In this document: positions 16,111 through 54,000 of the stretch, one piece after another
How the letters are laid out: each line of letters opens with the position of its first letter
Position numbering within the stretch: position 1 is the stretch's first letter
NCBI GenBank assembly: GCA_003971905.1
Contig: RSEE01000111.1
Span: forward strand, 62,001 to 126,000
DNA: 64,000 nucleotides
Source: Moniliella sp. 'wahieum'
Taxonomy: Eukaryota
Direction: 5' to 3'
The notes under the pieces: model-generated
Database searches by the model: none
What the model saw: only the letters and a program-made list of their open reading frames with translations
Told to the model about the DNA's origin: nothing
Made by a program: the position numbers and the translations under genes

Positions 16111-16879
16111 GCTTCGCACCCTGGTCTGGCTACGCGCGCCGCCTAGGTCCCGTTCCACCTCCTGTTTCTGTTTCTGTGTCTGTTTCGGTACCCACACCAG
16201 CACACCGCACACCGCACACCGCACCCAACTTCCCCGAGCCGCTGGAGGAGCGCTTGGTTTCGAATGCGCGGCCTCGACGCGGTGGGGAGGGGGGTACTCC
16301 CTCGGTCGCGTGGCCAAGAGACAAAGGAACGACGACGTTGGTGGACGCAGTGCAGTGGCGAAGATGGGAGGACGAGGACCGACGTGCGTGCCGAGCTAAC
16401 CGTATAATGACACCACCCCCAGCCAGCCTCGTTCTCTGGCGCAATGCATCCGGCGAGAACGAAGGAAGCAGGCACGGCCTGGCGCGTCGATGTGTAGGTG
16501 TTAGGCAGGTCGGATCGACGGGAAAGCAGGAACGTAGGAAAACTGGAACGCGGGAAAGCAGGAAAGCACTGAAGGAAAACAAGAAACAAACGTGAGTAGT
16601 TCCGACCCCAACGGGCCCCTAAGCTCTCGCGAGGGAAACTATACATGGCAGGGGTGAAGCCGGCGAATTAAACCGTGGTAGACAGAGGAGATATAGGTGA
16701 GCACCGCCGCCCATCAGACCGACTTCCAGGGACACGGGTTACAATCACTAGTACTTCGAAACGCGGCATTAGTTCGACCCCCTCCCTCCCCGGTAACGGT
16801 GCTGCTCTTGTAGTAGTTCAATACCTTTCGGGCGGCATTTGTTAGCCGAGCCGGCCTGCGCTCGGGTGCCTGCCCCGGC

Positions 16880-28107: not shown

Positions 28108-28458
28108 ATGCATTTGATGTACACGCTCGACAGCGTACGTGCCCCGCCTACGCTGCTGCCTCCGCGCCTGCGTCGCGTCTCTCTCTCTACTGACACCGCC
28201 TCCGCTCCAGAACGGCAAGCGCACCTACACGCTCAAGAAGGCCACGCCCGAGGGCGAGGTGACCAAGAGCGCGCACCCAGGTACGTTTTTATTTTTTTTT
28301 TCTCCTCTCCGCCGCCTATGTGCCATTGACCTAACACCACCCCTCACCTCCTTTGCCTGCCATCCAGCCCGCTTCTCGCCGGACGACAAGTTCCCCGGCA
28401 ACGCGTGACGGTCAAGCGCCGCTTTGGTGTGCTGCCCACGCAGCTGAGCAAAGAGTAA
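28108..28458 (+). CDS. NOP10: H/ACA snoRNP subunit Nop10 (two introns)
   Basis: Introns 28135-28210 and 28281-28367 (GTACGT...CAG). Spliced product [41 protein letters not shown](S)[20 protein letters not shown]; one base is missing near 28393. Confidence 0.95.
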
Positions 28459-33309: not shown

Positions 33310-36287
33310 GATGGCCACCATGGATGACCCCCGCCTCGCACCCGCCCCCTCTCCGCCGCTCCGATCGGGAAATGGGTCGACGGGAACGGGGCCACCACCT
33401 CGATCGCCGCTGTTGCCTGGTTGCTTGTCCCCCGGTGCTTGTCCCGCCATGCTTGGGCCCTGCCCGCCGTCCGTCGTGATGGCGTGTGTGTGCGCCTCTG
33501 CCTCTGCCTCTGCCTCCGCCTCCGCCTCCGTCACCACGCCCCCTTGGCGCTCCAGCCCGCCCCGCCATGCTCAACCCCCCGCCCGCCGTGCCGGACGACC
33601 GCCGCTCGGTGCGCCGCCCGGCGCCCTTGTCCTTGTCCCCCCACGCAGCGCGCAGCGCGCACCTCACCGCGCCCACCCCCCCGCTCGTCCGAGTTTCCCC
33701 TCTCGCCCATCTCGCCTCTTGACCGCACCCCGCACGCGCGGCTCGGATCCGGATTCGACCCCCTCTGCCCCTGGACGCTGCCCGACACGCCCGACACGCC
33801 CCTCGACCCACGCAGCCCCTCCCTCGGCTGCCCGCCCGCCGGCGGCGTCGCTGTTGGCGCACCCACGGGCGTTGGTGTTGGTATCGGGCTTGGGCTTGGC
33901 TTCCTCCCCACCCTCCGGCCCCAGGACCTGGACCGTCGCCTGGATCGGGACCGTGCGGACCATCGTGCGCCCACCTCGGCGGCGCCTTTCTTCCCCGCAC
34001 CCCACTTATCCTCCCCCCCACACCCACACCCACACCCACCCACAAGCACGAAGCGGAAACGTCCGAGGCAACCGCACGCGAGATTCACTTACTCCGCACG
34101 GCATCTGTGCCGGACTTCCACGCTGGCCGTGCCAGTCCCGCCGCCACACGGTTGCCCGCCTCTTCCCAGCACGCTTCGCACTTTGGCCTGGCACGGTTCC
34201 CTCCGCACACGGTGCCTCGTGGTCTAGGTTCGCCCTTGATCAACCCGCCCCGTTCGGCACCTTTTCACCACGGCATTTTCCCCCTCTTTGCCTTCCCTCC
34301 CTTCCTCCTCCTTCCCCCGCCTACCTCCTCCCCCTCGCTCCCCATCCGCGCCGACTTGCACTTCAAGCCGTTTGGCGCACATGCGTCCCCGCACCTGCTG
34401 AGCCACCCAAGCCTCCTTGGCCATCCCAGTCACCCGAACCATGCGAGCCACCTCACCAACCCGAGTAACCCGAGCAACCTAAGCAACCAGAGTAACCTAA
34501 GCAACCTAAGCAACCCGAGTAACCTAAACAACCTGAACAATCCGAGTAACCTCAGCAATCCGAGCAACCTCAGCAACCTCAGTACCGATCCACTCGAATC
34601 ATCCCACCTACCCCAACCGCCTGTGCTCCTACGCCTCCTCGCCGAAATGGAAGTGGACTCGCCCACGCCCACGCCACTCCCTTCCCACCCCCTACTACGA
34701 GAGACGACGACCGCGCCAGGGACGGAACGCTGGGCCGCTGCACCCTTGTCCGTATCTTATCTTTTGGTCCTGTGTGGGCAGCCCAAGTGGGCAAGGAGGA
34801 AACCGTGTTGTTTTCACGCCAACAGGATATGGTACGTCCCCCCCCCCTCCCCCTATCGCGCCGTACACGTAACCACTTGAATTGGCATGGTCAGCCGTTC
34901 TAACTCTTCTTCTTTTCCAGCTCATCTTTGGTGGTCGGAACGGGTTCAACCCGCGCCATCCACTTGGCTTTGTGCGCACGTTGCACAGCTTTGAGCGATG
35001 GGAAAAGATTGTGGATACGGGAAACGTAGGAGCGTTCCGGTTCCAGCGGGGCGACTGGTTTTGTGACTTGTGTGGGGAAAAAATGTGGCGGTGGCGCTTG
35101 TCGTGTCGGAAATGCAAGACGGAGCATGCGGCAACGCGGTTGCAGGATCGGAACCAGATTGGGGTCAGCTTGACCCCGGCCGCACTGGCAACTGCTTGGG
35201 AACGGGTCAAACGGACGGAACAGGCCATGTTGTCCGCTACTCTCTCGGCTCTTCACACTATCCCTTCCCTTCCCTTGTCTTTGTCTTGTCCTTGCCCTTG
35301 CCCCTGCCCAGCCCGGCCGTTTTCTACTCCACCGCTGGCTCAGACGACCGACGTCCCCCCGTCCCACCCGTCCCATCCGTCCCATCCGTCCCATCCGTCC
35401 CATCCGTCCCATCCGTCACTTGCTTCTCTCCCCCCTCGCCCGGGACGGGCTCCCGGGCTGGGCATGCCATCCGGGGTACTATCTCCTTTGGCACTTCGTG
35501 CGTTCGCCTGCGCCATTGCTCCAACCCGTTTCGTCACGCTGTACCCTTCGCCGCTGGCCGATGTAGGATACGGACCGGAGCCCAGTCGTCGTCCGAGCTT
35601 TGTCCCGAGCCCAAGCCCTACCCTTGGCCCCATCCCCACGGCACCTGCTACGCCCCTGGCCCAGACGGACCTCGCCGCCCACCCATCTCCCACCCCAACC
35701 CAGCACGACAGCACCAACGGGCCAACAGGACCAACGGGACTAACGGGACTAACGGGACCAATGTGACCAACGGGGCCAACGGGGCTGATGCCCCTACCAC
35801 CCCAGCGGCGTCCCTCCCCACCAACCCGTTCTTCCACCCCACGCCAACCTCCACCTCGCACGTGACCGTAGCCGCGCCTTCGAACGTCAATCCGTCCTCG
35901 CATCCCAGCCCGAATCTGAATCTGATCTGAGTCTGAGCCCGACCTGGGTCTAAGTCCCACCTGTGTCTGAGCCCGAACTTGGGTCTGAGTCCCAACCTCA
36001 ACGCGAATGCGAACCTGAATCCGAATCCGAACCCGAACCCGAATCTGAACCCGAATCTGAATCCGAGTCTGAATGCGACTGCGACCGCCACCGTGATGGC
36101 GACGACGCTGGATCCGGACCTGGCTTACGTCCCGGACCACCGAGCCACACCACCCGCCTCCGCACTACGTTCTCACCTCAGCCCGTTGACCCAGATGTCC
36201 CCCCTCCTCGCTCACCTTCCTCTCCGCCCGAGCGTGCGTGATACGCTTCACCCTACCAAGGGTTTGACTCCTAAGTTCAGCGTGTAG
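33310..36287 (+). CDS. Low-complexity protein with a RanBP2-type zinc finger
   Basis: FRFQRGDWFCDLCGEKMWRWRLSCRKC (~35035-35115; W-x-C-x2-C-x10-C-x2-C). Probable intron ~34832(GTACGT)-34920(CAG). Pro/Ser/Asn-rich arms. Start and end approximate; frameshifted. Confidence 0.65.
34455..34582 (+). repeat. 9-bp coding microrepeat (SNP/SNL tripeptides)
   Basis: Translates as NPSNPSNLSNQSNLSNLSNPSNLNNLNNPSNLSNPSNLSNLS. Confidence 0.85.
35361..35417 (+). repeat. 9-bp tandem repeat (ccatccgtc)n encoding PSH repeats
   Basis: About 6 tandem units seen directly. Confidence 0.9.
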
Positions 36288-36403
36288 CTGGGATTCTCCT
36301 GCCCCCCTGACTTTCTGAACATGTTCTCTTTTTTACCGTCCCAGTAATCGTATGCGACACTGACACCAGTACATATTGTTGGCCTTTTAGCTGATGCGTC
36401 CTA

Positions 36404-36457
36404 TCATTGACAGAGCCTAAGGCTGGGACAGGGGGAATGCTACGCCTAAACCGAACC
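36404..36457 (+). repeat. 54-bp dispersed motif, copy 1 (TIR-like)
   Basis: TCATTGACAGAGCCTAAGGCTGGGACAGGGGGAATGCTACGCCTAAACCGAACC; 4 mismatches to the reverse complement of 42231-42284. Confidence 0.9.
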
Positions 36458-36839
36458 GTTCATCTGCGGGGGTTACCTGGAAGCGCCCCCAGGTTAAAAG
36501 TAGCTTATTCAGTACACCATCGATCATCTGCATCATCAATAGTATCAGACGCAGATCACGTGCATCATGTATTGTTGCCACGTCACCCACCGGTGCCTTG
36601 CCTGATCGTAGATGTGAAAGCTAGACCCTAGAGTTGCCGCGCGCAGGCCAGCAGGCCACGTGTACATTCCTGTCCCACTGCTTGCTCTGTCCTCTTCGCC
36701 ACCACCTCTCCTTCCCCCTTCCCTTCTTCTCGCTCACCTCGTTACTTGATTCCTACTCGCTGATCGTCTGTGGTTTAGAGACTAGGTGTCTCCAGGTCAG
36801 AGCCTTCCACGCGTCGCTACAGTATGCGTCATGTGCATC

Positions 36840-38244
36840 ATGCAATGATCAATTGATCTCGGTTGTAGAATGGATAAGCACTTGGTCCAGCCCCTTGCCT
36901 CTCAGTTGGGGGACGAGCATTCCATGTCACCAGCAGCTGTGGCCAAATGAATAGCCGTGGTTGTTTCCCCCTTGGTGCATCCAGCATTGACCCACCCGCA
37001 ACTCCCACATTTGCGAAGACGTAGCCTGTTCCTGTCCATACACGTGTGTAAAAGGTAAGCACCACTGGTGGAGGCTGAACTCGATCGCCTTTGACCACAA
37101 ATGTTGTTGTTCTGGATAGATGACCAATGACATACCGAGGATGGATTGCGCTTGAAAAGTTGAACCCAAAAGTAGATATCTTCTTTGTACCCCGAACGAG
37201 GAAACTCTTGACCCTTGTACCAATCCCTGTACGCTTGAATCTGCTCCCTGGTGAATCGTATGTAAATATCATGAAGGGTACACCAAAGCGAGAAGCAGCG
37301 TAGCATTTCTCCAGACCTTATCGTTGTCGTGCACCCAATATGAGAGGTTGTAGTCTTCATGTTCATAATCCCACGACACTCATGAGAATGGGAATTTAAG
37401 TCAGCCTCAAGTTACTGTTACACAAATATGAATGTACAGTACGCACCGTAATGGTACAAGGGCTGCTTCGCCCTTTTCGAGAACTGAAAAATGACCCATA
37501 TAAGGTACAAATGGCCACCGTCACTCCGAAAACGAGGAGTCGAACGAAGGCTGCTGGTTGACTGCTTCCTTCGTACCCTTGATCAAGAATCGCGTCTTAT
37601 CGTGCTCCACAGTCGAATGTACGCCAACTGGTGACGCTATTACAGGCCAAATATTGGTTAATATTCCTGTGAGATAGTTCGACGGACCAGAGGAAGAGCG
37701 TACTTACCGGCATACCCCCGCTACCACAGGCAAATCAGCAACCATAAGAATGAACGAAGATCCCGGAACAGTGAAGTCGATACGGGGTGCAGCCACTTGG
37801 TCCAAGGACGTCGCTGCGGTGCCCCCTGCGCCACGTATTGCAATCCGGTGAGAACACTCGGTATACCAACGCCAATACTATGTTGATAATGAGAGATCGC
37901 TTGGTCTTGGCATGGTTGGTTGAGTTGGTTGACAGAATGGCCAAAATCTCTCTAAACAAAATCACCTCGGTGCAGGATAACCCGGTTAGAGACCACTGTT
38001 CGATTGGCAACGATATATCGCACCAATCAATGGTCGTGCACGGTCTGAGTGTTACCGCCGATAGCATTTTGACATTGGAATATTTCCAGATGTTGGTCGT
38101 CATGATCGTGCTTGACACAATCGAGTAAAGCAGTACTCGGTACGCATAGATGCCCGCCCTTCTTGAGTTGCACAGGAGGAGAAGACGACCAAACATGCTC
38201 AAGACACCGAGTGTACCTACGATGCCGGAATATGCCGTTACCAT
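36840..38244 (-). CDS. STE3: STE3-type (Pra) mating pheromone receptor, 7TM GPCR; introns plus frameshifts in this assembly
   Basis: STE3 hallmarks in order from ATG 38244: WCDIS; FREILAI..KRSLIINIVL; (shifted) GIPSVLTGLQYVAQGHR-SDVLGPSGCTP; intron 37707(GTAAGT)-37667(CAG); NIWPVI; FVRLLVFGV; probable second intron from ~37445; SWDYEHEDY; FMIFTY(G)FTREQIQAYRDWY. C-terminal end approximate. Confidence 0.88.
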
Positions 38245-38717
38245 GGCTGGTGTTTTGAGGGGGATCGAAAGACTGAGTTGGAAAGAAGAGGTGAAAATGA
38301 TATAAAAGAATGTGGGAGGACCACGTATATATGTACTTCGGGATTACTAAAATACTATAATGCTGCTATATATAGGATCGGACGATCCGGCAAAACGATA
38401 TGGGGAAGATTATCGATACTAACGGTCGGTGTTGTCACGCGTGACTCATTCATTAATCATGCAGAAACACTTTTACTTACACATATTGACGGAAAGACTT
38501 CACTCTTGAGAAGCTTGAAGCTTGAAAGCACACAAAAGGAGGCAAACGCATATATTGCCTTTGGGCCTCTCCCATACAGGCTGCCACAAGGCCGGGTCGC
38601 GTGCACAGAGAAATGAGCGTAGCCGAAGCAACACCCCCCAGAACGGGTTTAGCTGTAACAGTCAGTTTAATCGAAGGAACAATACCGGAAGGGGCGATGG
38701 GTGATACAAAAAAGGAC

Positions 38718-38726
38718 ACAAAGGGA
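38718..38726 (+). promoter_or_regulatory. Pheromone response element ACAAAGGGA (Prf1/HMG-type) in the STE3-pheromone 1 divergent promoter
   Basis: Exact match to the Ustilago maydis PRE consensus; 300 bp upstream of the pheromone ATG. Confidence 0.7.
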
Positions 38727-38766
38727 AAATGCTGCAAAAGGGGGGAGACCAAAAAAGCCGCACCTG

Positions 38767-39500
38767 CCGATACACCGCCTTCCAGCAACATACATAATAT
38801 CGGTACGTCAGCAAAACTGGCGTGTAAAAGGAGCCGCGGGGGTTCCGGCTAAAGAGATAGGAAACAGACGATAGTATACTCTGCTAGGGACAGTGCACTG
38901 CTATTTAAGAACCCATTTTCCACAATGCCGGACGCACATCACCACTACCCTCACCCACTCTTTCTCTCCTCTTCAGCCTCTGCCGTCGCGCATCAGCACA
39001 CCGTATCTTCCATCAAGATGTCTCTTTTCACCATGTTCACCATCCCTACCAACACGATGGCGGCCGAGCCTCTTGGCCCTGACCAGGACCCGAGTATGTA
39101 ACGCAGCTCCGTTTGGTCTGATTCGACCGCCCCAACCGTATGTTGCTAACACTGTGCTGTTTGCACGCCCAGCTGGTTCCATGACTGGCTGTGTCATTGC
39201 CTAGAGGGGCTTTCTGGTAAAGCCCTCCCATGCCGGTCAATCCCCAATCCTCCCTTCACTGCTGTTAGTCAGCTTAGGCATATCAGCAGTTCTCCTTGGC
39301 ATCCCTATAGTTGATGCTGATCTCTGCGCCTGTTTGGCCCGTTGAGATGCTGAGAGGCGTGCACCATGATGTGTTTGTCTTTCAGTCTCTTCTAGCGCGG
39401 CCCCGGTATTTGATCACTCTTCTCTTTTACCTCTTATACCCCCGGACCCCCCCCCCCCCCCCCCCCCACCTATAGGAGAGAGCAGACACTTTGTGTGTTG
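38767..39500 (+). repeat. Pheromone cassette repeat, copy 1 (promoter, gene, 3' region, poly-C)
   Basis: High identity to ~42612-43345 and ~49959-50615; TATTTAAG at 38902; C21 tract at 39447-39467. Confidence 0.92.
39018..39204 (+). CDS. mfa: Lipopeptide mating pheromone precursor, copy 1: MSLFTMFTIPTNTMAAEPLGPDQDPTGSMTGCVIA (35 aa, CAAX = CVIA)
   Basis: Exon 39018-39093, intron 39094-39172 (GTATGT...GCTAAC...CAG), exon 39173-39204. Size, N-terminus and C-terminal CAAX are typical of basidiomycete pheromones; divergent from STE3. Confidence 0.93.
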
Positions 39501-39713
39501 CATTGATCAATGGTCCGTGAGCAACAGAGAGAGGCCTGGAAATATCCCTGTTTCCCAGTAAATATTAAGGAAGAGCGTTTGCACGGAATCGACACACCGA
39601 CTACTAAGGTTTGACCTAACCTCAATATTTAATGCCCTCTTACCCCCTACTGTGGCGTCACCCCCTAGAGAGGCGTTGTCAGCGCATCTCTCCCTGCCCG
39701 CCTTTCTTGTCCA

Positions 39714-39769
39714 AGTCCTGGCCGTTTAGTCCTGGCCGTTTAGTCCTGGCCGTTTAGTCCTGGCCATTT
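39714..39769. repeat. 14-bp tandem repeat (agtcctggccgttt) x4
   Basis: Seen directly. Confidence 0.9.
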
Positions 39770-39789
39770 CCAGCCAATTGATTGAATAA

Positions 39790-40745
39790 TACATGCAACC
39801 TCTCTCGTCTCTCCACTTAGCTGCCTCCTCTTCATCATCCAGCCTCTCGTCCTCCAGAGAGTTCCATGCGCCCAGTGGCGCGAGCCTTCCTTCAGCCGGT
39901 CAATTCCCGGGCCGTACCACAGCATATCGCGTGGGTTCCTTTCCAGCCACGTCGACAGCCGCCCCTGGACAGCCTCAGCTCTGGCAGTGTTTGTTCTCCA
40001 CTGACTCTACCCGTCCCTAAGTCCCAGAGGCTTCAGACACGTTACTATACGGCCCAAGCCGGTGCATAGGCAGCCTTGCCACACGTGCAGCCGCCTCAGC
40101 TTCATACTCAAAGGCTTCTCCTCGTCCCTAGCTCCACTCGGATCCACCAAGTAGCCCAATCCCGAAACTTCCTCGAGTCGTCTTTCTGTCACCTAAGGAA
40201 TTGTACCCCCAAAACGTGGGCGATCCCCTTGGCGGGTCCCGCCTGTGACAGGGTCGGCGTAATTCGCGTTGAATGGATCGAGCCCACCGCATCCTCGGTA
40301 CCACCTATCAGCCCTGATGCATTTTTCTCCACATCTCCGCCTTGCTGTACGACTCCGCCTGTTGTGCCACGGATACTCTTTTCACCACTGCTCCCCTTTG
40401 ATCCAGTAGTAAAGTCCCCATAGGATGGAAGGCATTATATAACACACTCATCCACCTATCGAGCGTAAACGCTAGGTCATTGGAGGATTATCCGAACGGA
40501 GCTAGGGCCAGGGCAGAGACGCGTCGGGTGGTGATCGGTCTTGCAAAATAAGCATTGTGGGCACAGTCGGCAGTCTTGTGGCCAGGGCGACGGCATGGCG
40601 GCACAACGCTGGTCGTGGATTGAAGGTACACTACACCGTGTGCGAGTGTGGTCGTTGGTGCGGCAATGAGGGCACCGCCAACAGTGAGCACGGTAGGGGG
40701 CATTTTAAGGTAGTGGACGGGCGCGTCGACGCGACCCTGTGTCAT
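39790..40745 (-). pseudogene. Decayed CCHC zinc-knuckle gene, copy A
   Basis: Reverse-complement similarity to 41065-41600. ATG 40745 (MTQGRVDAP..); knuckle remnant CRRPGHKTADC. Confidence 0.7.
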
Positions 40746-40759
40746 ACACAGCGGATTTC

Positions 40760-40900
40760 AAAAAGAGGTAAAAATATCAGCGATGTTCGGGAGCTGACAT
40801 CGGCGACGTGTTTGCATGGTTTTGAGGAAAATGATGTCAGCGACATCGAAAAAGAGGTCGTTGATATCAGCGACGGCGCAAAAGAGGTCGTTGATGTCAA
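40760..40900. repeat. ~30-bp degenerate tandem repeat (aaaagaggtcgttgatatcagcgac)
   Basis: Several imperfect units in the spacer between the head-to-head zinc-knuckle copies A and B. Confidence 0.75.
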
Positions 40901-40904
40901 TGAA

Positions 40905-40943
40905 GTAGCGTCCCCCTGTCCCAGCCTTAAGCTCTGTCAATGA
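40905..40943 (-). repeat. 54-bp motif, copy 2 (partial, 39 bp)
   Basis: Reverse complement reads TCATTGACAGAGCTTAAGGCTGGGACAGGGGGACGCTAC. Confidence 0.85.
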
Positions 40944-41064
40944 AATGGACATGGTCTAGAGATCTTTTATTACCATACGCGAGGGAGGTGCAAGAAATCC
41001 GCCAACAACCCTACTGCCCCCCCCCACCTGCACGTGACGGGGGGCTGCGCCAACGATCGGGCAT

Positions 41065-42097
41065 ATGACAGAGTCGCGTCGACGCGTCCCTCCACTCCCT
41101 TAAAATGCCCCCTACCCGTACTCACCGCCGGTGCCCCCATTGCGGCACCAACGACCACACTCACGCACAGTGTTCCTTCAATCCACGCCGAGAGTTGTGC
41201 TGCCACTGCCGTCGCCATGGCCACAAGGCTGCCGACTGCGGTAGTTTCGGGTTTGGGCTATTTGATGGATCCGAGCCGAGGAGAAGCCTTTGGGCGTGAA
41301 GCCGAGGCGTCCGCACGCGCGGAAAGGCTGTGTATGCGCCGGATTGGGGGTAGTAACGTAACTGAAGCCTACGGAGCTTAGGGACGGGTAGATGCTGTGG
41401 AGGAAAGAGACTGTCAGGGCTGAAGCTGGGCGGGAGCTGTGCACGTAGCTGTGAAAGGAACCCACGCGATATGCTGTGGTATGCGGAACCGACCCCGCTG
41501 AAGGAAGGCTCGCGCGACTGAGCAGATGGAGAGCTGGAGGACGAGGTTGGATAGTGAAGATGAGACAGCTAAGTGGAGACGATAGGTTGCCTGCATTACT
41601 CAATCAGTTGGCCGGAACCGTCAGGAGTTGGACAAGAAAGGTGGGAAGGGACGAGAATGGAAGGTGGGATAAAGGATCCCCACTGATTGAGGATGCTGAC
41701 TGTTGGCTGACCCTGTTTTGGTAACCCCCTCCTGTCTAAGCCTCACCGCACTGGCATATAGATGTTGACAGAGCGAAGCAGACGAAGCTGCTACAGAGTG
41801 CCACTTGGGAGCACTCATCGCGATCCTATGGATCAGCTGCAACGCAGCCTTCAGACAAGGCGTGAAGGCAATGTTCAAGCAACATCTGAATTGAAGGAAA
41901 GGAGACAGGAGAGAGAGAAGGGAGATGAAGCGAGCAGGGCGCGCGCGCCCTGCGAGCGGAACTCTTCCGCCCGGGTAAGTGAGCGTCACCGATCCACCGA
42001 GAGGGCCGTGCAAGGGAACCCCAGCACTACCCTCCAACAGAAGCAAGCGAAGACTGCGAAGGCACTAAGAATGTCATCCGATAGCACTTCCTCGTAA
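41065..42097 (+). pseudogene. CCHC zinc-knuckle gene, copy B (most complete), interrupted by stops and frameshifts
   Basis: Starts MTESRRRVPP. Two perfect C-x2-C-x4-H-x4-C knuckles, CPHCGTNDHTHAQC and CCHCRRHGHKAADC (in ORF 41105-41299). Ends MSSDSTSS*. Confidence 0.78.
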
Positions 42098-42230
42098 ATG
42101 ATAATGTCTTTTCGTGATCCGCTGTGTAATATGCCCGATCGTTGGCGTAGCCAGCCTCACCTACCCGTCACGTGCAGGTCGGCGAGCAATAGGGTTGTGG
42201 CGGATTCTTGTTCACCCTCTCTGATATAGA

Positions 42231-42284
42231 GGTTCGGTTTAGACGTAGCGTTCCCCCTGTCCCAGCCTTAAGCTCTGGCAATGA
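42231..42284 (-). repeat. 54-bp motif, copy 3
   Basis: Reverse complement reads TCATTGCCAGAGCTTAAGGCTGGGACAGGGGGAACGCTACGTCTAAACCGAACC. Confidence 0.9.
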
Positions 42285-42394
42285 TATGGATTCGAAAGTA
42301 GTAGAGATCGCAGTAACCTCTCTTCAAGCTGCAAGCAGTTGGCTTCATTGACCCTGTGTGAAACATAGGTCAGGTGGAACAGCGAGCAATGTAC

Positions 42395-42403
42395 ACAAAG
42401 GGA
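42395..42403 (+). promoter_or_regulatory. Pheromone response element ACAAAGGGA upstream of pheromone copy 2
   Basis: Exact match to the PRE consensus. Confidence 0.65.
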
Positions 42404-42865
42404 ATTATTTTTCGACCCAACAGCAGCCACAACAGTCATATTGAAGGAAGTATACTATGTAGCTGAAAACCTTGGATTGGCGTATGAAAATATGGCTCAA
42501 GACCTTCACTGCCAGTGGGGGTGAACGAGATTCGCTCCACCCACCCCGAACAGAGAGGGCGGACCTTCCGAAAGAGATTTGGAACTTCCGAAAGAGGGAG
42601 AGTCGACTTGCCGATACACCCTGCGTTCCAGCAACGTGGACATCGGTACGTCACAGCAAACCTGGCGTGTAAAAGGAGCCGCGGGGGTTCCGGCTCAAGA
42701 TAGGAAACAGAGGATAGTATACTCTGCTATTAGGGACAGTGCACTGCTATTTAAGAACTCATTTTCCGCAATGCCGGACGCACATCACCACTACCCTCAC
42801 CCACCTCTTGTCTCTCCTCTTCAGCCTCTGCCGACGCGCATCAGCACACCTTAACTTCCATCAAG

Positions 42866-43054
42866 ATGTCTCTTTTCACCATGTTCACCATCCCTACCAA
42901 CACGATGGCGGCCGAGCCTATTGGCCCTGACCAGGACCCGAGTATGTAACGCAGCTCCGTTTGGTCTGATTCGACTGCCCCCCGACCGTATGTTGCTAAC
43001 ACTGTGCTGTTTGCACGCCCAGCTGGTTCCATGACTGGCTGTGTCATTGCCTAG
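42866..43054 (+). CDS. mfa: Pheromone precursor, copy 2: MSLFTMFTIPTNTMAAEPIGPDQDPTGSMTGCVIA
   Basis: Exons 42866-42941 and 43023-43054; 81-nt GT-AG intron with a GCTAAC branch site; intact CAAX and stop. Confidence 0.93.
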
Positions 43055-43340
43055 AGGGGCTTTCTGGTAAGCCCTCCCCATGCCGGTCAATCCCCAATCC
43101 TCTCTTCACTGCTGTTAGTCAGCTTAGGCATATCAGCAGTTCTTCTTGGCATCCCTACGGTTGATGCTGATCTCTGCGCCTGTTTGGCCCGCTGAGATGC
43201 TGAGAGGCGTGCACCATGATGTGTTTGTCTTCAGTCTCTTCTAGCGCGGCCCAGGTTTTGATCACTTCTCTTTTACCTCATATATTGGACCCCCCCCCCC
43301 CCCCCCCCCCCCACCTATAGGAGAAAGCAGACAGTTGGTG

Positions 43341-43511
43341 TGTTGTTATAGACCCGAGAGAAGGTAGTTGGTACTAGTGTATTGCATTAGTTGCACATGA
43401 GCTACAGAGGATAGAGAATATTCCTGCCCGCCAGGAAGGAATATTGCATGGAACCAACCAGAAGGTTCCGGACTTGGGCTACCGCCGCCACTACACCAGT
43501 GTGGCGTCACA
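43341..43511 (-). repeat. Possible 3' LTR of the copia element
   Basis: TG...CA-bounded ~170-bp segment just beyond the RNase H stop, next to a short purine run (GGAGA) on the minus strand. Weak similarity to 39496-39661 (shared tgtggcgtcac). No matching 5' LTR found. Confidence 0.3.
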
Positions 43512-43547
43512 TCTCCACAAGCCCAAGGACGGTACCGACGGTTTTCC

Positions 43548-46500
43548 TCAAGCGCTCGAGCTCTTCAATCCCCACCAAAACCTATAGGCACCGGAGTGTC
43601 CAGGTGGGGGGAGATCAGGAATAGGACCCAATTCGCGGTCACGCAGCGGCTCCAGGGCCATGTATGCCCGGCTCTTGCTGTGGAGGTCGGAGACGTTGTC
43701 CACACCTTTTAAGGACACAGGAGTAACAATCCCTGCTCGGTTGCTCTCACGTATATAGGTGTAGGAGCGGGCAACGTGGCGCGTCCCTTTGGCAGAACCC
43801 CAATTATTCGCGCAGGCGACTGCTGCCACGGATGAGTCGCGCCGAAGCGCGAAAGGAATACCTGCGGGAAAAGCACCAAGCTCCGCTAACAGTTCACGCA
43901 GCGCCATAGCATAAGCCACACCCTCACTCGCTGCCACATACTCCGAGTCGCCCGTGCTGCGTCCCACCACGCGCTGCTTGGCCGAGCGCCAGCCAACCAA
44001 GGCTCCAAAAACGTAGACTGCCAGGCCAGAGGTGGCCTTGCTGCCCCACCTTTCGTTCTTGTAGCTACTGTCGGTAAAAAGTTCCAGCGGTGGGCCAAGG
44101 GTAGGGTGGAGTCGGAGCGCTAGACCAGCATTGTGACCCAGATAGCCCCCTACCCCGGCCAAAGCCGTCCAGTGTTGGGGACCAGGGTCAGCGCAGAATT
44201 GTCCAAGGGAGCGCACAGCAAAAGCAATGTCCGGCGGGTGCAGGACGCGATCCATCCTAGTGTTCCCACTTCACTGGCGAAGCGATGTGTCTCCTCCTCC
44301 GGACACTGTCGCTCGCCTTCAGCGCGGGGGACAAGCTGAGTCCCCGTAGGAAGGGCTGACGATAAGGTGGCTCGCCCTCACGTCCAAATCTTCACGTGCT
44401 CGCCTTAATATAGTCCTCCTGAGAGACATGGCACTCTCCAGGTCGGAAGCGAAACGCACACTCAGAAAGTATGCTAACGGACCGCCGTCCTTGACATCCA
44501 CATGTTGGCGTAGGTCCCATAAGAAGTTGTAGTATGCCTCAGCAGATGAGGCAGCGACGCAAGGATCATCCACCATATACAGAGGATGATCACTTCTTCA
44601 CCGCGTACACGGGTAAATACGCACGGGTCGGCGATAGTGGAGGTGCAGCCGATGAGTTGGAGCAACCCGGTAAGTTTCTCATACCATCTCCGCGAGCTCT
44701 GCTTCAGGCCATACGGGGCTTTCTTGAGTAGCCACACCTTACCATCTTCCCCGCCGAAGCCCTTTGGCGGTTCCATGCACACGTATATTCGCTTGGCTGG
44801 ATGTCGGCATAAAAGAAAGCGAACACCACATCGCAAGTGAAAACGGGTCAGTCATGACGCAGAGCAAGAACGATAACGGTTAGCAGTGCCATGAAGCGTA
44901 CAGTGGCGGAAGATTACGTAGTAGCTGGATCATAGTCAAGGCCCGGGCGTTGAAGGAAGCCCTGGCCTACCCACCGGGCGCGCCGCCGAACTAGTCAACC
45001 GGCCTCGGTTTTGTAATGGCAGACAAAGCGAACCCTCGACACCATGGCATCACTCCCTTTCGCCGTCACTCCCTTTCGCCGTCACTCCCTTTCGCCGGCC
45101 GCTGCACGCTCTCCCAAACCCCCCCGGTCTTCCAGATTCTTCACCTCATCCCCGAAAGCCTGCTCCCACTCGCTTGCATCCGCACCTCGTCGGGCTTCAT
45201 ACTCATTGCGGGGATCCACCAACAGAGGAGGGACATCCCCACCATTGTCCCCACCATTGTCCCCACCATTGCCCCCACCACTTCCCACTGTGGTCACAGC
45301 CGCGGCAATGGGATGGGACGGTTGATATGCTTCGTCCCTAGTTTTGCCCTGATAGGGCCCAAAAGTTTGGACCAAACTGATTGCGCAAATCAGCCTGTAG
45401 GGCCGCCTGCCGTCTCGGGCGTTCATTGTGGTCCGGTACCGCAGCATTCGGCGCGGTTGGCTCCAACTCCGCAATCGTGGCTGATGGAATCAACGTGCGC
45501 CTGGGGCACAGGTCCAGGTAGTTGGTGTCATCACCCCATCGTAACATATCCCTCACCCAGGTGAACCGCCACTGCGATACTTCCCACTCGCCCACTAGCC
45601 ACTTGCTTTGGCCCACGTCGTATCCAAGCGAGGAGCACCACGGGACGACAAGCGATTCTCCCGATCCTCTTCGTTCACGAGCGCATGGGCCACTGCACCA
45701 AAGCGATGAAGGTACGCTGGCGCAGCTGGTTTCTCCAGGTAACGCGTGGCAGGATTCGGAGGGCCAAGCTTGCCGATACTCATGTTGTGTATATATGCTG
45801 CGGCCTCAATGGCGAGCGGCCAAAGGTCCACATTCATCCGCCATGCCCGCATCTTGCAGTAGGGCTCGCGTAGTCGTGACAAGTTCTTGTTGGACACGCT
45901 CCACTTTGCCATTGCTGGCGCTAGCATTACACACCGTCTGGATGTGGCGAATCCCCATTTCAGAAAAGAAGGAAGCAAGAAGAAGCAAACTCAGTACCTT
46001 GGTCCGAATGGACGACAGATACCCTGTACCCCTTGTGCTGGAAACGTCGCTCCTCTTGGACGATGTGATTCCGGAGGAAGTAGCAACCTTGTCCTTTCCC
46101 GCCGCAGGATAAACGGAGCAGTACCTGGTGTGATCGTCCAAGATCATGAGCATGACAGTGGCGCCAAAAGCGTCTGACAGGGGGAACGTTGTCATCACGT
46201 CAACATGTAGCTTGTAGAGCGGTTGAGGGGAAGTCACGGGTTCGGCTACCCGATGGTGGGGAGCGTGGCGAGCTTTCTCGGTGGCACACACGGTACAGAA
46301 CCATTTGCTTTCCGCGCGGCGGACAACTGCGGCCGGTACCTCACAACTGTGTCCTTTGGAGGATTCAACCAGGCGGCCGAGTCCTATATGCCCTAAGCTC
46401 CTATGAGCGTCCATAACGCGCTCAAGATCGCCCTTCGAGGGTGTGGCCCGTGCAGAAGACGCGCTTGCTGTCGCCACGATTGGCGTCGGGGCCAACACGT

Positions 46501-47476
46501 GTGGCTGGGCTAAAAAAGTGGGAGTCGAGCACGACCTTGGCTGGCGGCGGCGTGTGCTGGTGTAAGTTGCGCATCGCCGCCCTGGGCGCGTCAGGTTCCC
46601 ACGGCAGGCCGACATCGCTCCGGGCGGCCGTGGTAGGTGGTGGAGTCTAAAGTGGGGCTGCTTGGGCTGCGCTGACCGGACTGGTTTCAAGGTTTCACAC
46701 AGGTCGACGTGCAACCAGTTGCACGCGCGGCCGGCAATCAACGTCACTAGTCACTAGTCACTAGTCACTGCTATGCCTGAAGTTGCCTCGCCAAGTGATC
46801 ATCGATCACTCGACAGAAGCGGGTCTACCAACCCTTCCACTAGACGGCACTCTGGCATGTAAAGGGATACAACTTCAAGCTTCATCGTTTACGCGTTAGG
46901 CCTTAGGGCGCGTACCCAGACGCGAACATCACCGATGTGGTTGCACAGCACAAGTTCACCATTTGCCAGCTCCGCCTTTTCCCGCGTCAGTGGGCCGCAC
47001 GTTCACCACCGGCCATCCGAGTCATTACGCAGAAGTGTCCATGGATCCTGAGAGATGCGTGCCTGCTTGAAATAGCCTCAGATTGTAGACGCCAACAGGG
47101 GGCCAGAAAGGCTGTCTTTCAGGGCCCGGTGAGGGGACGTGAGCCCGTCCCTGTCCAACATGTTCTCAACAGGACTAACTGCCCCCTCAAAATCAGCCTG
47201 GTAATTGTACCCACAGTCTCAGAGCTTGCCTTTTCCAAACAGGAGGATACTTGTCTTGATTTTCCTATCCAATATTCGCTCGACAGATCCAAACAAGTCT
47301 TGAACATACGACGACCAGGGACCATAAGATGTGGCCTTGGCTGTGAGCTTGGGAAGACTTGACCAGCCACCGCTGCGATTCACAGCAGTTTCAACCGCGG
47401 CGTTGAACGTAGGAAGCGAATCTTGGGATACGACCGTAGACAAAGGTGTCACGACGCTGGGGTTGAACGTTGACAA
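43548..47476 (-). mobile_element. Degenerate Ty1/copia LTR retrotransposon (gag fragment, integrase, RT, RNase H)
   Basis: Gag-like LPKLTAKATSYGPWSSYVQDLF. Pre-integrase HRSLGH..CTVC. Integrase LHVDV..ILDDHTRY..NGKVER. RT WVGQGFLQRPGLDY, MEPPKGF..LKKAPYGLKQSSRRW, ADPCVF and VDD. RNase H PDIAFAV..FTDSSY..WRSAKQRVVGRSTGDSEYVA. The IN-RT-RH order defines copia; no protease recognised. Confidence 0.93.
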
Positions 47477-47570
47477 CTTACACGCGTGATTACCTGATGC
47501 ACCTGCAGTGCTCCCACTCAGTTGTGTTTTTGTTCATGTCAGGTTCTCTCTAAGTTGCGTCCACTGCATA

Positions 47571-47624
47571 TCATTGACAGAGCTTAAGGCTGGGACAGGG
47601 GAGTCGCTACGTCTAAACCGAACC
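47571..47624 (+). repeat. 54-bp motif, copy 4
   Basis: TCATTGACAGAGCTTAAGGCTGGGACAGGGGAGTCGCTACGTCTAAACCGAACC, ~95 bp upstream of the copia gag-like ORF. Confidence 0.9.
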
Positions 47625-47637
47625 TGTGAAACATATA

Positions 47638-48506
47638 GAACGAGGAAGTGCTATCCGATGATATACTCTTAGTGCCTTCGCAGCCTCCACTTGCTTCTGT
47701 TGGAGGGTAGTGAGCTTCACGGGCCCTCAGTGGATCGGTGACGCTCGCTTAACCGGTTGAAAGAGTTCCGCTCGCAGGCCGCGCACGCCTTGCTCGCTCC
47801 ATCTCCCTTCTCTCTCTCCTGTCTCCATCCCTTCAGACGGTGCTTGATTCCTTCATGCCTTGTCTGAAGGCCGCTTTGCAGCTGATCCATAGGATAAGTC
47901 GCACTCTAGCAGTTTCGTCTGCTTCGCTCTGTCACCATCTATATGCCACTGCGATGTGGCTTAGACAGGAAGGGGTTACCAAAAAGGAGTCAATCAATAG
48001 TCAGCATCCTCGATCAATGGGAATCCTTTATCCCACCTTCCATTCTCGTCCCTTCCCGCCTTTCCTGTCGAACTCCTGACTGTTTCCAGCCAATTGATTG
48101 AGTAATACAGGAAACCTTTCGTCTCCACTTAGCTCCTTGCCAAGCGTGCGGCCGCTTCGGCTTCACGGCCAAAGGCTATCCAGCAAATAGCCAAAGCCCG
48201 AAACTACCGTGAGTCGTTCTGCACGTAAGGGATTGTACCCCACCAGCCTGGGTGAGCCTCCTGGCAGGGCCTCCCTGTACGCCTGTGACAGGGTTATCAT
48301 CGTAATTCACGTTTCATGGATCGGGCCTACCACCTCTTCCATCCCCTCCCTTGGCCACCGAGTCCCTTTGGGTTATCCCCCCCCCTCTCAATTGCTCTCC
48401 ACATCTCCTCCTTGCTCTATCACTCCTCCTTGCCAGGGTTACTCTTTGCACCACCGCTCCCCTTGTAAGGTATGGGAGAGGGGACGCGTCGACGCGACTC
48501 TGTCAT
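47638..48506 (-). pseudogene. Zinc-knuckle gene family, copy C (knuckles deleted)
   Basis: ATG 48506 gives MTESRRRVP; the 3' half matches the reverse complement of ~41570-42095. Confidence 0.7.
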
Positions 48507-48521
48507 ATGCCCGATCATTAA

Positions 48522-49413
48522 TCACGAGGAAGTGCTATCGGATGACATCATTTTTTGTCCCTTCGCAGCCTCCGTTTGCATCTGTTGGGGTGGTAGTGTT
48601 AGGCCTCCCCTGCACCCCTCAGTGAATCGGTGACGCTCTTGCTTAGCCGGTCGAAAGAGTTCCGAAAGAGTTCCGCTCGCAGGGCCCGCGCGCCCTGCTC
48701 GCTCCATCTCCCTTCTCTCTCTCCTGCCTTCTTTCCTTCAGATGCTTGTAGACTTGTGGTCACCCCTTTGCCTTCACGCCTGCAGTGTCTGAAGGCTGCT
48801 TTGCAGCTCATTGGTAGGATCTTGAGTGCTCCCAAGTCGCACTCTATAGCAGCTTCGTCTGCTTCGCTCTGTCAACATCTACGTATACGCAGCCTTGCCA
48901 CGCGTGCAGCCGCCTCGGCTTCACACCCAAAGGCTTCTCCTAGCTCGGATAGCCCAGGCTCAAAACTACCGTGAGCCGTCTTTCACGTAAGGGACTGTAC
49001 CCCACCAACCTGAGTGAGCCCCCTGGCAGGGCCCGCCTGCGACAGGGTCGTCGTAATTCACGGTACATGGATCGAGCCCGCCACCTCTGGATCATCGATC
49101 ATCCTTACTCCATCCTTCCACCAATCCACTTTGTCCTCCCCTCTCTTCTTGTCCTCCCCCCTCTTCTTGTCCTTCCCCCCCCACCTTATTTTTGTCGCAA
49201 AGACCCCAATTGCTTTCCACATCTCCTCCTTGCTCCACCGCCCCGCGGCAGTCTTTAGCCAGGTCGACGGCCGTGGGGGCACAAACGTGGGAGTGGATTG
49301 AAGGGGCACCGTGTGCCAGTGTGGTCGTTGGTGCCGCAATGGGGGCTCCGACGGTGAGTACGGGTAGGGGCATTTGAAGTGGGTGGAGGGACGCGTCGAC
49401 GCGACTCTGTCTT
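48522..49413 (-). pseudogene. Zinc-knuckle gene family, copy D (ATG changed to AAG), head-to-tail with copy C and divergent from pheromone copy 3
   Basis: KTESRRRVPPPTSNAPTRTHRRSPHCGTNDHTGTRCPFNP...; ends MMSSDSTSS* at 48522. Confidence 0.72.
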
Positions 49414-49737
49414 ATGCCCGATCGTTGGTTGGCGCAGCCAGTCCCACCCACCCGTCACGTGGTCCGCGGGCAGTAGGGTTGCACATTTCTTTTGCCTGCT
49501 CGAACATGGAACTAAGAGATTGGCGTAGCCAGCCCCGCGGAGCAGTAGGGTTGCACATCAGGGAGCAGTAGGGTTGCACACTTTCTTTGCACCCTCGCAT
49601 ATGGAAAGTAACCGGTAACCGGTAACCTCTCTTCAAGTTTCAAGCTTCATTAAGCTTCAAGCTTCAAGCTTCAAGCTTCATTGGCTTCATTAAACCCTGT
49701 GTGAAACATAGGTCAGGTGGAACAGCGAGCAATGTAC

Positions 49738-49746
49738 ACAAAGGGA
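49738..49746 (+). promoter_or_regulatory. Pheromone response element ACAAAGGGA upstream of pheromone copy 3
   Basis: Exact match to the PRE consensus. Confidence 0.65.
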
Positions 49747-50217
49747 ATTATTTTTCGACCCAACAGCAGCCAACAGTCATATTGAAGGAAGTATATGTAG
49801 CTGAAAACCTTGGATTGGCGTATGAAAATATGGCTCAAGGCCTTCACTGCCAGTGGGGGTGAACGCGGTGAACGAGATTCGCTCCACCCACCCCGAACAG
49901 AAAGGGCGGACCTTCCGAAAGAGATTTGGAACTTCCGAAAGAGGGAGAGTCGACTTGCCGATACACCCTGCGTTCCAGCAACGTGGACATCGGTACGTCA
50001 CAGCAAACCTGGCGTGTAAAAGGAGCCGCGGGGGTTCCGGCTCAAGAGATAGGAACAGAGGATAGTATACTCTGCTATTAGGGACAGTGCACTGCTATTT
50101 AAGAACTCATTTTCCACAATGCCGGACGCACATCACCACTACCCTCACCCACTCTTGTCTCTCCTCTTCAGCCTCTGCCGACGCGCATCATCACACCTTA
50201 CCTTAACTTCCATCAAG

Positions 50218-50406
50218 ATGTCTCTTTTCACCATGTTCACCATCCCTACCAACACGATGGCGGCCGAGCCTATTGGCCCTGACCAGGACCCGAGTATGTA
50301 ACGCAGCTCCGTTTGGTCTGATTCGACTGCCCCCCGACCGTATGTTACTAACACTGTGCTGTTTGCACGCCCAGCTGGTTCCATGACTGGCTGTGTCATT
50401 GCCTAG
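50218..50406 (+). CDS. mfa: Pheromone precursor, copy 3: MSLFTMFTIPTNTMAAEPIGPDQDPTGSMTGCVIA
   Basis: Exons 50218-50293 and 50375-50406; 81-nt intron with a canonical TACTAAC branch point; intact CAAX. Confidence 0.93.
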
Positions 50407-51025
50407 AGGGGCTTTCTGGTAAAGCCCTCCCAATGCCACGGCAGGTCAATCCCCAATCCTCCTTCACTGCTGTTAGTCAGCTTAGGCATATCAGCAGTTC
50501 TCTCTTGGCATCCCTATAGTTGATGCTCATGTCTGCGCCTGTTTGGCCCGCTGAGATGCTGAGAGGCATGCACCATGATGTGTTTGTCTTTCAGTCTCTT
50601 CTAGCGCGGCCCTGGTACTTCATCTATCCATTTCCTCATCCCTTTTCCTTTGTTTCTGCGCGTTGCTACAGTGAGGGTGATCCAATGGAGGGTGTTTGCG
50701 ATAGTTATAGACGGGGTGAGGATTGTGATGCAGGGGTGGATGCGCTGTTGGTGTGCGATTGAGAGTCGGCGGTTGGCATTGCGAGTTGAGATGTTCGGTC
50801 TGAGAGAAAAAGGCGATGGTGGTGTTTTGAGCTGGCAAAGGCGCACTGCCATGTGGCACGCTGCCGGCGTCGGCACACGCGTGTGGCCTGCTGACGTAAG
50901 GGGTGGACGCGTGCGGGTGTTGGCTGTGCTGGTCTGCCTGGGACGCGCCACGCATTTCGCCATCGCCATCGCCACCGCCATCGCCACCGACTTCACCATC
51001 GTCTCTGCCATCCCCGCCGGGTTCC

Positions 51026-54000
51026 ATGTCGCGTCGGCACCAGACGCGTCCTCCCTCCCCCCGCCGCAGCTGGGCCTGGGCGCCGCGCCGATGCGCACGC
51101 CCGTCGCCTCCTCTGCCCCCCGTCTCCCGTCGCGCGCTGCCTCCGCGAGCCTCGGCCGCCGTGCACGCGGCAGCCTGGTCGGCCACACGCGCAGCGCCAG
51201 CGGCGCCAGCACCAGCACCAACCTCAGCGCCAGCCGTGGCATGCGCTTCCCGCGGTTGTCCGCCCTCGACCTGCCCCCATCCTCCCCCGTGGCTGACGCA
51301 GCGGCCGAGCTGTCGAGCGTGCTGGGCGTCGTGTCCTTTGCCGCGGACCGCGTCCTGCGCGAGTACCTCGCGTTTGACCCCCACTTCCATCTCTCCGCTC
51401 TTTGGCGCCAGTGGCTCGCGTTTGCCACTGTCAAGCAGACCCAGCTCTCCCCACTGCCGACTTTTTCTTCGAGTTTGTCGACCTGCCACGTCTCGCCAAC
51501 ATCTGGGCCCTGCCTTCTCACGCGCTTCCTCCGGCTGCCGCGACGGCTGTCCACAAGGCCAATTGTGCCACACTGCTCCATTTTGCCTGGCAGCTTCCTG
51601 AACTCCCAAGCCTGATCCAGAGCTCGATCCAGACGGCTCGGCTGCCGCCAGAGAGGCACAGTACTTTGACCCAGACCTGCTCGATGCACCGCTCCAGGTG
51701 CGGGACGATAGCCAACTTGCCATCACTCCCCGCCACTTTCTTCTTCACGTGATTCCAGCTCATTGGCCCTCCATCGATGCCCCAATTGTCAACGCCTACT
51801 TTTTCCTCCGCATTCGTTACACACCTCTCTCCCAGATCGTCCATGCGCTCCGAGGGTTGGACGAGAGGGTAATGACCCATCACCAAACGCGGGCTACCTG
51901 CCAAGCTGCTCTGGTTCAGGTTGGCAAGTCTTCAACTGTAGAACGTGACTGGGCTCAGCTGGTCCAAGCCGGTCGCCTCTCCACCGAAGAGCAAGCCAAT
52001 GCGGTCAATGAGGTCCTAGCGCTGATCAACGACTGGGTCGAAGCTGTGGAGGATATCCTGGTTCAGTACCTCGCTGCTCCCGCCTCCTCTTCTGATGCTA
52101 AAGTTGGCCAATTGGCGGCCGAGGAGATTACAGCAATTCTCCCGGTCGCACATGGGGCCGAGGAGTTGACGCTTCTCGTGCGCGAATTTTTGGAGCATCC
52201 CGAGTACCTCGACGCCCCCCCAGCCAACGAGCCTAGCTTCACCCTACCCAGCCGCTCTGTTCTTCGATCGGGACTCTCCTCGGCGCACTCTCGCCCGCCA
52301 CCTTCTTCAAGACGAGAGGTCCGGGCATCGTTGCCCCCGAACCTTCACCGCCAGAGATCCACCTCAGTCTCTTTTACCTTGCCCCACGTTCGGCCGTCAT
52401 CCGTTGCCCTCACTTCGCGTATTGGTGAGCGCATTCTGTTTGCCTCGGATGATGATGAGTTCACTTCGGCCCGGGCGGAGCAGCCGGATGCCAACGAGAC
52501 AGGTCTCAGTCGATCTCAGCGTCGCGCCATCCTCGAAGACTTGTCGAGCGACGAGGAAGAATCTGAGGTGGAGCAAGCCCAGTCAGACGCACCCAGTTCG
52601 GATGCCGAGCAAGCTCTGCCTGAAGCGACCCAGGACCCGGATGCACCTCATCCCGATATGGAGTCGGCATCGGAAATGTCCTCTGTTGCAGAAGACGTCG
52701 ACTCGGGCTCGGCTCTGCGTATTCCACCCCGACCCAAGGTCCCTCGTCCCCCGTCAGAGAAAGAGAGCCGCCGCGCCTGTCCAGGAGGAAGAGGCTGAAC
52801 CTGCCCCCATGCCCGAGAGCGACTACGACTATATCCCCCGTGAACAGCCTCAGGAGCGGGAGGCACGACCTAGCGTGGTACTCCCGCGCCGGCCACGGGC
52901 AGAACAAGGCGTGGCAAGACAACCCGAGGAGAGGCTGGCCTTTGGGCCCAACAATGAGCTTATTCGTACTACTGCGCCTCGTCCCCGCACCGGGCTCGTG
53001 AGTCGCCATCGAGGCCGAGGAGAAGAAAATGTGCAAGATCAAGAGCAGGGAAGAGACTCGTTTGATTCCCAAGGGGTGTGGCCCTCACCCTTTACCAAAC
53101 GCCGACTTACCAATGTCGAAAGTTCCACCCCCCTCGCCTCGCCCCAGCGTCGCCGTAAGAATCTGACCCAACCCGCAAAGAAGGCATCCAAAAGGCAGGA
53201 ACGCAGATTCGAGCGTTCTGATTCTGGTTCACGAGACGAGTCAGAGCAGCAGCCCCGGCCGAGTCATCACAACAGCCTCAAGAAGAAGAGTCCGAAAGGC
53301 TTGCGCCCCAGCCACCGCATCGAACCCGCCCTACATCCGCATCGGCAAGTACTGCCACTGGCCAAGTCAAAGCTTCAGGCCGAAGGAGCCAGCAGAGAGA
53401 TGCCGAACTGGTCCAAAGGTTATCGCTTGAGCAACGGAGGCAAGTGCTTCTCAGTATGATGGACGAGTCAGATGTGTTGGAGTTCGATTCCCAGCCTTTA
53501 TCCGAATCCCAAGGATCAATTGGGAACCAAGGGCGCACTGGGGCCACAAGATCTGCTGAGATGGCCCTAGGGTCGCAAGCCTCCCCCGAGCCTCAACAGG
53601 ATGAGGAGGTGCGTCCTGCACCGGCACCTCCAGCACTCCCAGACTTGGGGAACATCGAGAACGATGGAGGCGCGCTAGAGTTTACCACTCTCGATATAGA
53701 ATTTCCGCCGCTTGAGGACGCCCCCGAGCCGCCTGGAGAACAGGAGGACCAGCCATTGCCTGTTTCGCCCCCTCCACGGGACACTCCTCTTGTCGATTCA
53801 GGGCGTCGTGCGGCGACGCGTCCTGTGGCACCCGTCACAGAAGAGACGGAAGGAGGTTTCGAAGAATGAATTTGCTGAGAGGGTGCAGCTGGAACACACG
53901 CATCAATTGGGAGAGGGAAGGGGCCGAGCAGCTGCACTCGGGGGGAGGCTGCCCCATGCCTCAAAGATTATGACCCCCCAAGAAATGCAGAGGAATATCC

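Follow-up and report, generated by a model that had tools for sequence, protein, structure and literature searches.

The stretch of DNA analysed here, which we call the window, comprises 64,000 nucleotides of contig RSEE01000111.1 (assembly GCA_003971905.1, deposited as Moniliella sp. 'wahieum'). Our subject is an island of about 14 kb within it (36300-50620), which holds a gene of the STE3 family of pheromone receptors, three copies of a pheromone precursor gene and the remains of transposons. We describe these genes, the breaks in the receptor frame and the composition of the island, and then argue that the whole is very likely a pheromone/receptor (P/R, or 'a') mating-type locus.

Receptor gene, pheromone genes and promoter elements

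The receptor gene, pra, lies on the minus strand at 36838-38244 and was delimited from a Pfam STE3 match, an alignment to the protein P0122 and profile alignments. Exon 1 starts at ATG 38244 and ends at 37708; intron 1 runs from 37707 to 37667 or 37628 (the acceptor is uncertain), exon 2 continues to 37447, and intron 2 (about 37446-37379) is followed by exon 3, for which the true frame decides between candidate stops at 36838, 36902 and 36927. Single-base breaks interrupt the frame at several points. The open reading frame (ORF) at 37738-38343 matches STE3 (PF02076) with E = 1.3e-6 and 28.3 bits, slightly less than the cut-off of 29.2, because only the 5′ part of the gene is in frame. It was the sole STE3 match in a scan of 251 open frames from the whole window (116 + 135; those to the left of the island had at least 150 aa, and within it and to its right a selection with at least 70-75 aa was taken). 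When frameshifts were allowed, pra covered positions 11-208 of an STE3 profile with 68.8 bits, compared with 14.8-19.4 bits for six control stretches. This profile combined P0122 with 120 retrieved STE3 proteins, which carry Agaricomycete names or none; against the profile lacking P0122, the receptor frame read through with X residues scored E = 2.7e-18. The 3′ half of the gene aligned with profile positions 205-303 at 24.1 bits (14.8 ± 1.7 in 25 shuffles), and positions 11-303 are covered by pra only with frame corrections. An earlier note on this DNA had recognised a gene with STE3 motifs here, and had named a frameshift-aware STE3 search as the way to check it; the Pfam match on the minus strand and the gap between pra and the controls in the profile alignment bear it out.

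The closest relative of pra is P0122 (184 aa), itself an STE3 protein at E = 1.6e-19. When the first 125 pra residues were searched against 1.84 billion representatives, two matches came back, of which P0122 is real; the other, P0121, was dropped as a repeat artefact. With frameshifts allowed, 73 of 183 alignment columns are identical between pra exon 1 and P0122, and P0122 ends at the same splice-donor position. A metagenome scan with the receptor alignment gave 144 pattern matches, none of them confirmed, and one with the 3′ end of the pheromone gave none at all. The AlphaFold model of the first 125 pra residues had a mean predicted local distance difference test score (pLDDT) of 45.8 and was not used.

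Divergent from pra, across a bidirectional promoter of 773 bp (38245-39017, GC 0.476), lies copy 1 of the pheromone precursor gene (39018-39204, plus strand; exons 39018-39093 and 39173-39204, intron 39094-39172). Copies 2 and 3 lie 3.8 and 11.2 kb beyond it, with transposon remains between. The second belongs to a unit at 42322-43345 (plus strand; gene 42866-43054, intron 42942-43022) and the third to a unit at 49662-50624 (plus strand; gene 50218-50406, intron 50294-50374). Each copy has 108 coding nucleotides, encodes 35 amino acids and ends in the CAAX motif CVIA followed by a stop, and all three are on the plus strand. The single intron of 79-81 nt has a canonical donor, branch site and acceptor in all three cases. 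Codon 19 specifies Leu in copy 1 and Ile in copies 2 and 3. When all six frames were scanned for CAAX-stop patterns, these three copies and one unrelated match inside a copia relic came up. Thus the divergent CAAX gene, the gap of about 770 bp and the two further copies that the earlier note had described are all present, the additional copies (starting at 42866 and 50218) as 35-codon frames with at most one base difference.

The three units are 92-95% identical, and the coding parts are more alike than what surrounds them: 0-1 substitutions in 108 coding nucleotides, compared with 2-10 in about 240 over the 250 bp upstream and 4-7 in about 200 over the 205 bp downstream (1-4% in the flanks). 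The coding parts are probably kept near-identical by selection or gene conversion. In self-BLAST, units 2 and 3 have 960 bp in common, 540 bp of them upstream, and units 1 and 2 have 750 bp in common, including a longer 3′ flank. Since copy 2 combines the 3′ flank of copy 1 with the 5′ flank of copy 3, the arrangement suggests successive local duplications. Further upstream than 260 bp, the comparison of copy 1 with copies 2 and 3 found only a 12-nt core around the pheromone response element (PRE), with a score that did not exceed the shuffle maximum.

The PRE motif ACAAAGGGA, as given for Ustilaginales in the legend of Fig. 3 of PMC3248468, has three exact matches in the window, compared with 0.31 expected; two of 100 shuffles reach three, and two of the three sites (those of units 2 and 3) are one duplicated site. 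The first exact site, at 38718-38726 on the plus strand, is separated from the pheromone ATG by 300 bp and from the receptor ATG by 474 bp, and the same promoter has a one-mismatch site at 38532. The others lie at 42395, in the duplicated upstream region of unit 2, and at 49738, in the part of unit 3 that it shares with unit 2. All three exact sites are thus upstream of a pheromone start (300, 471 and 480 bp); the earlier note had also reported PRE motifs. With one mismatch allowed, the window has 14 sites where 11.65 are expected, which is no excess.

Frame breaks in the receptor and in essential neighbours

The breaks in pra have counterparts in other genes of the window. RPN9 (19929-21163, minus strand) required six frame corrections in 1235 nt when compared with an 84%-identical relative, and two more compensated clusters are visible. 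AFG2/Drg1 (8760-12900, minus strand) and transportin-3 (13100-16600, plus strand) also switch frame within conserved domains where no intron lies. These three are housekeeping genes and normally essential; as they are broken in the same manner, we conclude that the assembly has frequent small deletions. By this comparison pra is probably intact in the organism, and its frame breaks are probably assembly errors. A codon model put the frame-switch rate at 3-7 per kb in six of seven genes, values that are upper bounds because intron borders were counted as switches. The ORF track indeed resolves no complete gene of the island, as the earlier note had observed, but this is uninformative about the locus, because introns and single-base deletions explain it and such deletions also break the essential neighbours.

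Several observations weigh against so simple an account. For exon 1 of pra, 518 nt called for 7-9 corrections; this exceeds the RPN9 rate by a factor of 1.4 to 3.6, with p values of 0.02-0.46, depending on how compensated breaks are counted. The error rate is also patchy: the three pheromone frames, 324 nt in total, are free of breaks, and no more than one occurs in the 3.2-kb ORF at 22973-26128.

These observations lend some weight to an alternative that we consider unlikely, namely that the P/R locus is decaying in a lineage that is asexual or hybrid, with pra as a genuine pseudogene, transposons accumulated around it and the pheromone genes alone intact. It would account for a break density above that of RPN9 (p = 0.019 at the most unfavourable count), although an alignment at 40% identity over-calls breaks, and those found resemble the breaks of the three essential neighbours in affecting one or two bases. 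Intron 2 of pra has a non-canonical base before its AG, no acceptor of intron 1 restores the frame without a correction, and 47.5% of the island is repeats, all of which decay would explain; yet the corrected path through exon 1 has no stop codon, and the conserved STE3 motifs and the PRE are retained. We therefore retain the reading in which pra is probably intact and the assembly is at fault.

Repeats, base composition and flanks of the island

Self-similar repeats make up 47.5% of the island, 0.6% of its left flank and none of its right flank. The repeats counted are the pheromone units, three non-coding repeat copies of 1-1.9 kb and four of the five window copies of a terminal motif of about 60 nt; a Ty1/copia relic lies outside this count. 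This relic, a degenerate retrotransposon at 43341-47560 on the minus strand, has the order integrase, reverse transcriptase, RNase H and is interrupted by stops and frameshifts. Its domains range from RVT_2 (E = 1.8e-9) to weak matches to the integrase rve (E = 0.045) and SH3_retrovirus (E = 0.25). No matching pair of long terminal repeats (LTRs) was found for it in self-BLAST, which makes it a truncated relic and not a whole element. The non-coding repeat has two facing copies within 39758-42295 (39758-40740 on the plus strand and 40991-42210 on the minus strand) and a third, internally duplicated copy at 47560-49481 (plus strand), which carries the terminal motif at 47560-47625. Transposon debris, as the earlier note put it, is therefore present both as the Ty1/copia relic and as a non-coding repeat family.

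A fragment at 39495-39665 is related to 43341-43515 (global alignment score 11.5, compared with -40.7 ± 10.7 in 200 shuffles). We regard both pieces as LTR-like from the position of one of them by the RNase H end of the copia relic. These diverged pieces follow copies 1 and 2 of the pheromone gene at almost the same position: two independent insertions struck one spot, or else an old insertion was duplicated together with the gene. Directly past the 3′ end of pra is a 143-bp dispersed repeat (36680-36821), with a second copy at 18967-19101 (89% identity). Short tandem duplications number 1.3 per kb in the island; the left flank has 4.4 and the right tail 4.9, a deficit that would be expected of transposon-derived DNA.

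The terminal motif occurs in the window at 29285-29350, 36398-36490 (plus strand), 40902-40950, 42231-42295 and 47560-47625. It could be part of a non-autonomous element, as a terminal inverted repeat or as a 5′ end of Helitron type; no target-site duplication was seen in the motif alignment, and no transposase was seen either. The copy at 36398-36490, downstream of pra, faces those at 40902-40950 and 42231-42295, and facing arms of 56 nt, 93% complementary and 5773 nt apart, bracket pra and pheromone copy 1. One might imagine, as a long shot, that the two genes form a cassette between facing transposon ends (36402 and 40949 or 42290) that an element has moved or flipped, that the same elements drove the amplification of the pheromone gene, and that the strain also has a second allele and split homeodomain loci, the mating system having been rebuilt by transposons and pheromone dose having evolved as in Cryptococcus. 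With five copies of the motif in the window, this is a lead only. If true, there would be a lineage related to smuts with a transposon-rebuilt mating system and a pheromone dose evolving as in Cryptococcus.

The GC content of the island is 0.542, compared with 0.628 in the left flank, 0.610 in the next gene to the right (50621-55300) and 0.533 at 55301-64000; segmentation by GC placed a single break, at 36240. The drop relative to both flanks that the earlier note had described thus holds against the left flank and the next right gene, but not against the sequence beyond. Non-coding GC is 0.537 in the island, 0.56-0.63 in the five left-flank intergenic regions measured and 0.533 on the right. 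What is clearly low is the receptor gene with its promoter (0.48-0.49), and GC at third codon positions is 0.61 in pra, compared with 0.68-0.95 in 11 flanking coding pieces. Most of the dip is the absence of GC-rich coding sequence, and since gene-poor DNA at 55-64 kb is equally low, the dip is real but not special. Repeat-induced loss of CpG was considered as a cause and set aside, as the observed/expected CpG ratio of the island (0.80, compared with 0.77-0.95 elsewhere) gave no clear signal; the lowest ratios are those of the pheromone units (0.59-0.64).

The genes that the earlier note had taken as borders do not keep their labels. To the left, a gene at 34873-35250 (plus strand) contains a four-cysteine zinc-ribbon pattern in frame 35011-35178, which by eye resembles a RanBP2-type finger; Pfam did not confirm this, with no zf-RanBP match, and the Atlas gave no support. 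To the right, a long gene at 51600-55280 (plus strand) is mostly low-complexity, with a small tryptophan-containing domain at 54150-54485, and this frame, labelled Myb, had no Pfam match at E ≤ 1 and no Atlas support.

The 14-kb island may plausibly be the part of the mating-type locus that is allele-specific and does not recombine; the argument from GC is weak, because non-coding DNA at 55-64 kb is as low. That same equality in GC with ordinary non-coding DNA would suit a cluster that does not determine mating type, being fixed in all strains or one of two loci carried together for self-signalling, with the island no more than a repeat-rich intergenic region; but the mating-type-determining loci of Malassezia and Ustilaginales are laid out in this way, as a divergent pair with PRE sites, and we think this explanation very improbable. 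Least likely of all is that a noisy long-read assembly created copies 2 and 3 and that the real locus has one pheromone gene: the assembly is error-prone and indels make up many of the differences between the 92-95% identical units (units 2 and 3 differ by 15 such events in 926 nt), but substitutions, over half of them transitions, also separate the units (14 in 926 and 26 in 724), each unit has its own neighbours and ends, 7.3 kb of unrelated transposon sequence lies between units 2 and 3, and the coding parts are more alike than the flanks.

Elsewhere in the window, MDM31 lies at 4800-7800 (minus strand) and NOP10, a small three-exon gene, at 28109-28459 (plus strand; Pfam E = 9.6e-7 on exon 2). 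The frame at 22973-26128 (plus strand) is a coiled-coil ORF of about 1050 codons with no Pfam family above the cut-off and, unlike its neighbours, next to no frame breaks. A possible gene at 29960-31300 (plus strand) has hydrophobic stretches, many frame breaks and no Pfam match. At least 8.7 kb at 55300-64000 has no Pfam, Rfam or tRNA match and is rich in tandem duplications of 5-9 nt; across the whole window, Rfam and tRNA scans found nothing.

A probable P/R locus in a smut-related lineage

The best named matches of RPN9 are from Tilletiaria, Tilletia, Malassezia and Ustilaginales, at 45-51% identity. In a tree of 38 rows, the window sequence groups with P0001 (support 100/100) on a long branch, which then joins Tilletiaria (96/98), the nearest named row; the clades of Tilletia, Ustilaginales and Malassezia do not include it. 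On this basis the host would be a basidiomycete within Ustilaginomycotina, and we claim nothing narrower. Receptor family, divergent CAAX gene, PRE sites and lineage all fit a P/R locus, as the earlier note had proposed. We therefore hold it very likely that this is the P/R mating-type locus of a long-branched Ustilaginomycotina fungus, with the pheromone gene in three copies and a receptor that is probably intact.

Some results tell against this assignment. The 3′ half of pra is matched only weakly (24.1 bits, with a shuffle maximum of 19.8), none of three short 3′ pieces matched Pfam on its own, and hydropathy on the patched pieces gave five segments over threshold, not seven. The pheromone had no family match in a search with exon 1 alone. 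The lineage comes from one gene on a long branch, and long branches can mislead. Finally, in the window frames scanned we saw neither Rpn10 nor CAF1, two genes that are often linked to smut receptors (PMC7766764).

If the genes work as in smuts, the precursor would be farnesylated at Cys32, trimmed, methylated and secreted, and the receptor would sense the pheromone of the opposite allele and not its own. The signal would then pass through a mitogen-activated protein kinase (MAPK) cascade to a Prf1-type high-mobility-group (HMG) factor, which would bind the PRE sites and raise expression of both genes. CAAX processing, perception of the partner's pheromone and the path from MAPK to Prf1 and the PRE are summarised for smuts in PMC3248468 and PMC7766764. 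The extra copies most likely raise the dose of pheromone and do not add specificity, because the peptide of copies 2 and 3 is identical and that of copy 1 departs from it by a single Leu/Ile exchange.

Among described loci, those of Malassezia, in the same subphylum, have exactly one MFA and one PRA gene in divergent orientation (PMC10055393). The pairing of one STE3-type receptor with a divergent pheromone gene is the same here, but Malassezia has those two genes only, whereas this locus adds two pheromone copies and about 10 kb of sequence left by transposons. The a (PR) loci of Ustilaginales carry a single receptor gene and no more than two precursor genes, which fall into three allele-specific clades (PMC3248468). 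They resemble the present locus in the single receptor, the CAAX precursors and the exact PRE sites upstream, and differ in that here there are three near-identical, intron-containing copies and a very divergent receptor. None of lba, panC, lga2 and rga2 of Ustilaginales was recognised among the window frames scanned. In Exobasidium vaccinii, another non-model member of Ustilaginomycotina, the pheromone precursor gene is likewise duplicated, but so is the receptor, and homeodomain genes are adjacent (PMC7766764), whereas this island has one receptor. No homeodomain match was found in the window. Three intron-containing CAAX pheromone genes, as here, are also known as mfm1-3 of Schizosaccharomyces pombe, an ascomycete in which they are unlinked to the receptor and are not a mating-type locus.

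In copy number, the closest parallel lies in another subphylum. Tetrapolar Cryptococcus P/R loci span 87-95 kb, with two to four pheromone copies per mating type, often divergent, and many trapped genes (STE20, STE12, MYO2); these recombination-suppressed loci are reported to have a GC content below that of the genome (PMC12510652). The low GC is echoed here by pra and its promoter. In contrast, the present locus covers about 14 kb, its copies are all in direct orientation, and it has no other protein genes apart from the copia relic. Duplication of pheromone genes has been proposed to drive expansion of the Cryptococcus locus (PMC12510652).

The core of the locus is standard. Its number of pheromone copies is a novelty only within the smut lineages that PMC10055393, PMC3248468 and PMC7766764 cover. 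We found no description of such a locus in the literature for Moniliella, Moniliellomycetes, Georgefischeriales, Tilletia or taxa whose names begin with Peribolospor-, in a search that most subscription papers fell outside. The accepted view of how P/R loci work is unchanged by it. What it adds is a mate-recognition locus documented for a smut-related lineage that has no close named relative in the protein sets searched (RPN9 45-51%). The locus indicates a capacity for sex and supplies PCR markers for pairing strains. Its three pheromone copies parallel those of Cryptococcus, and locus expansion could be studied here in an early, small form.

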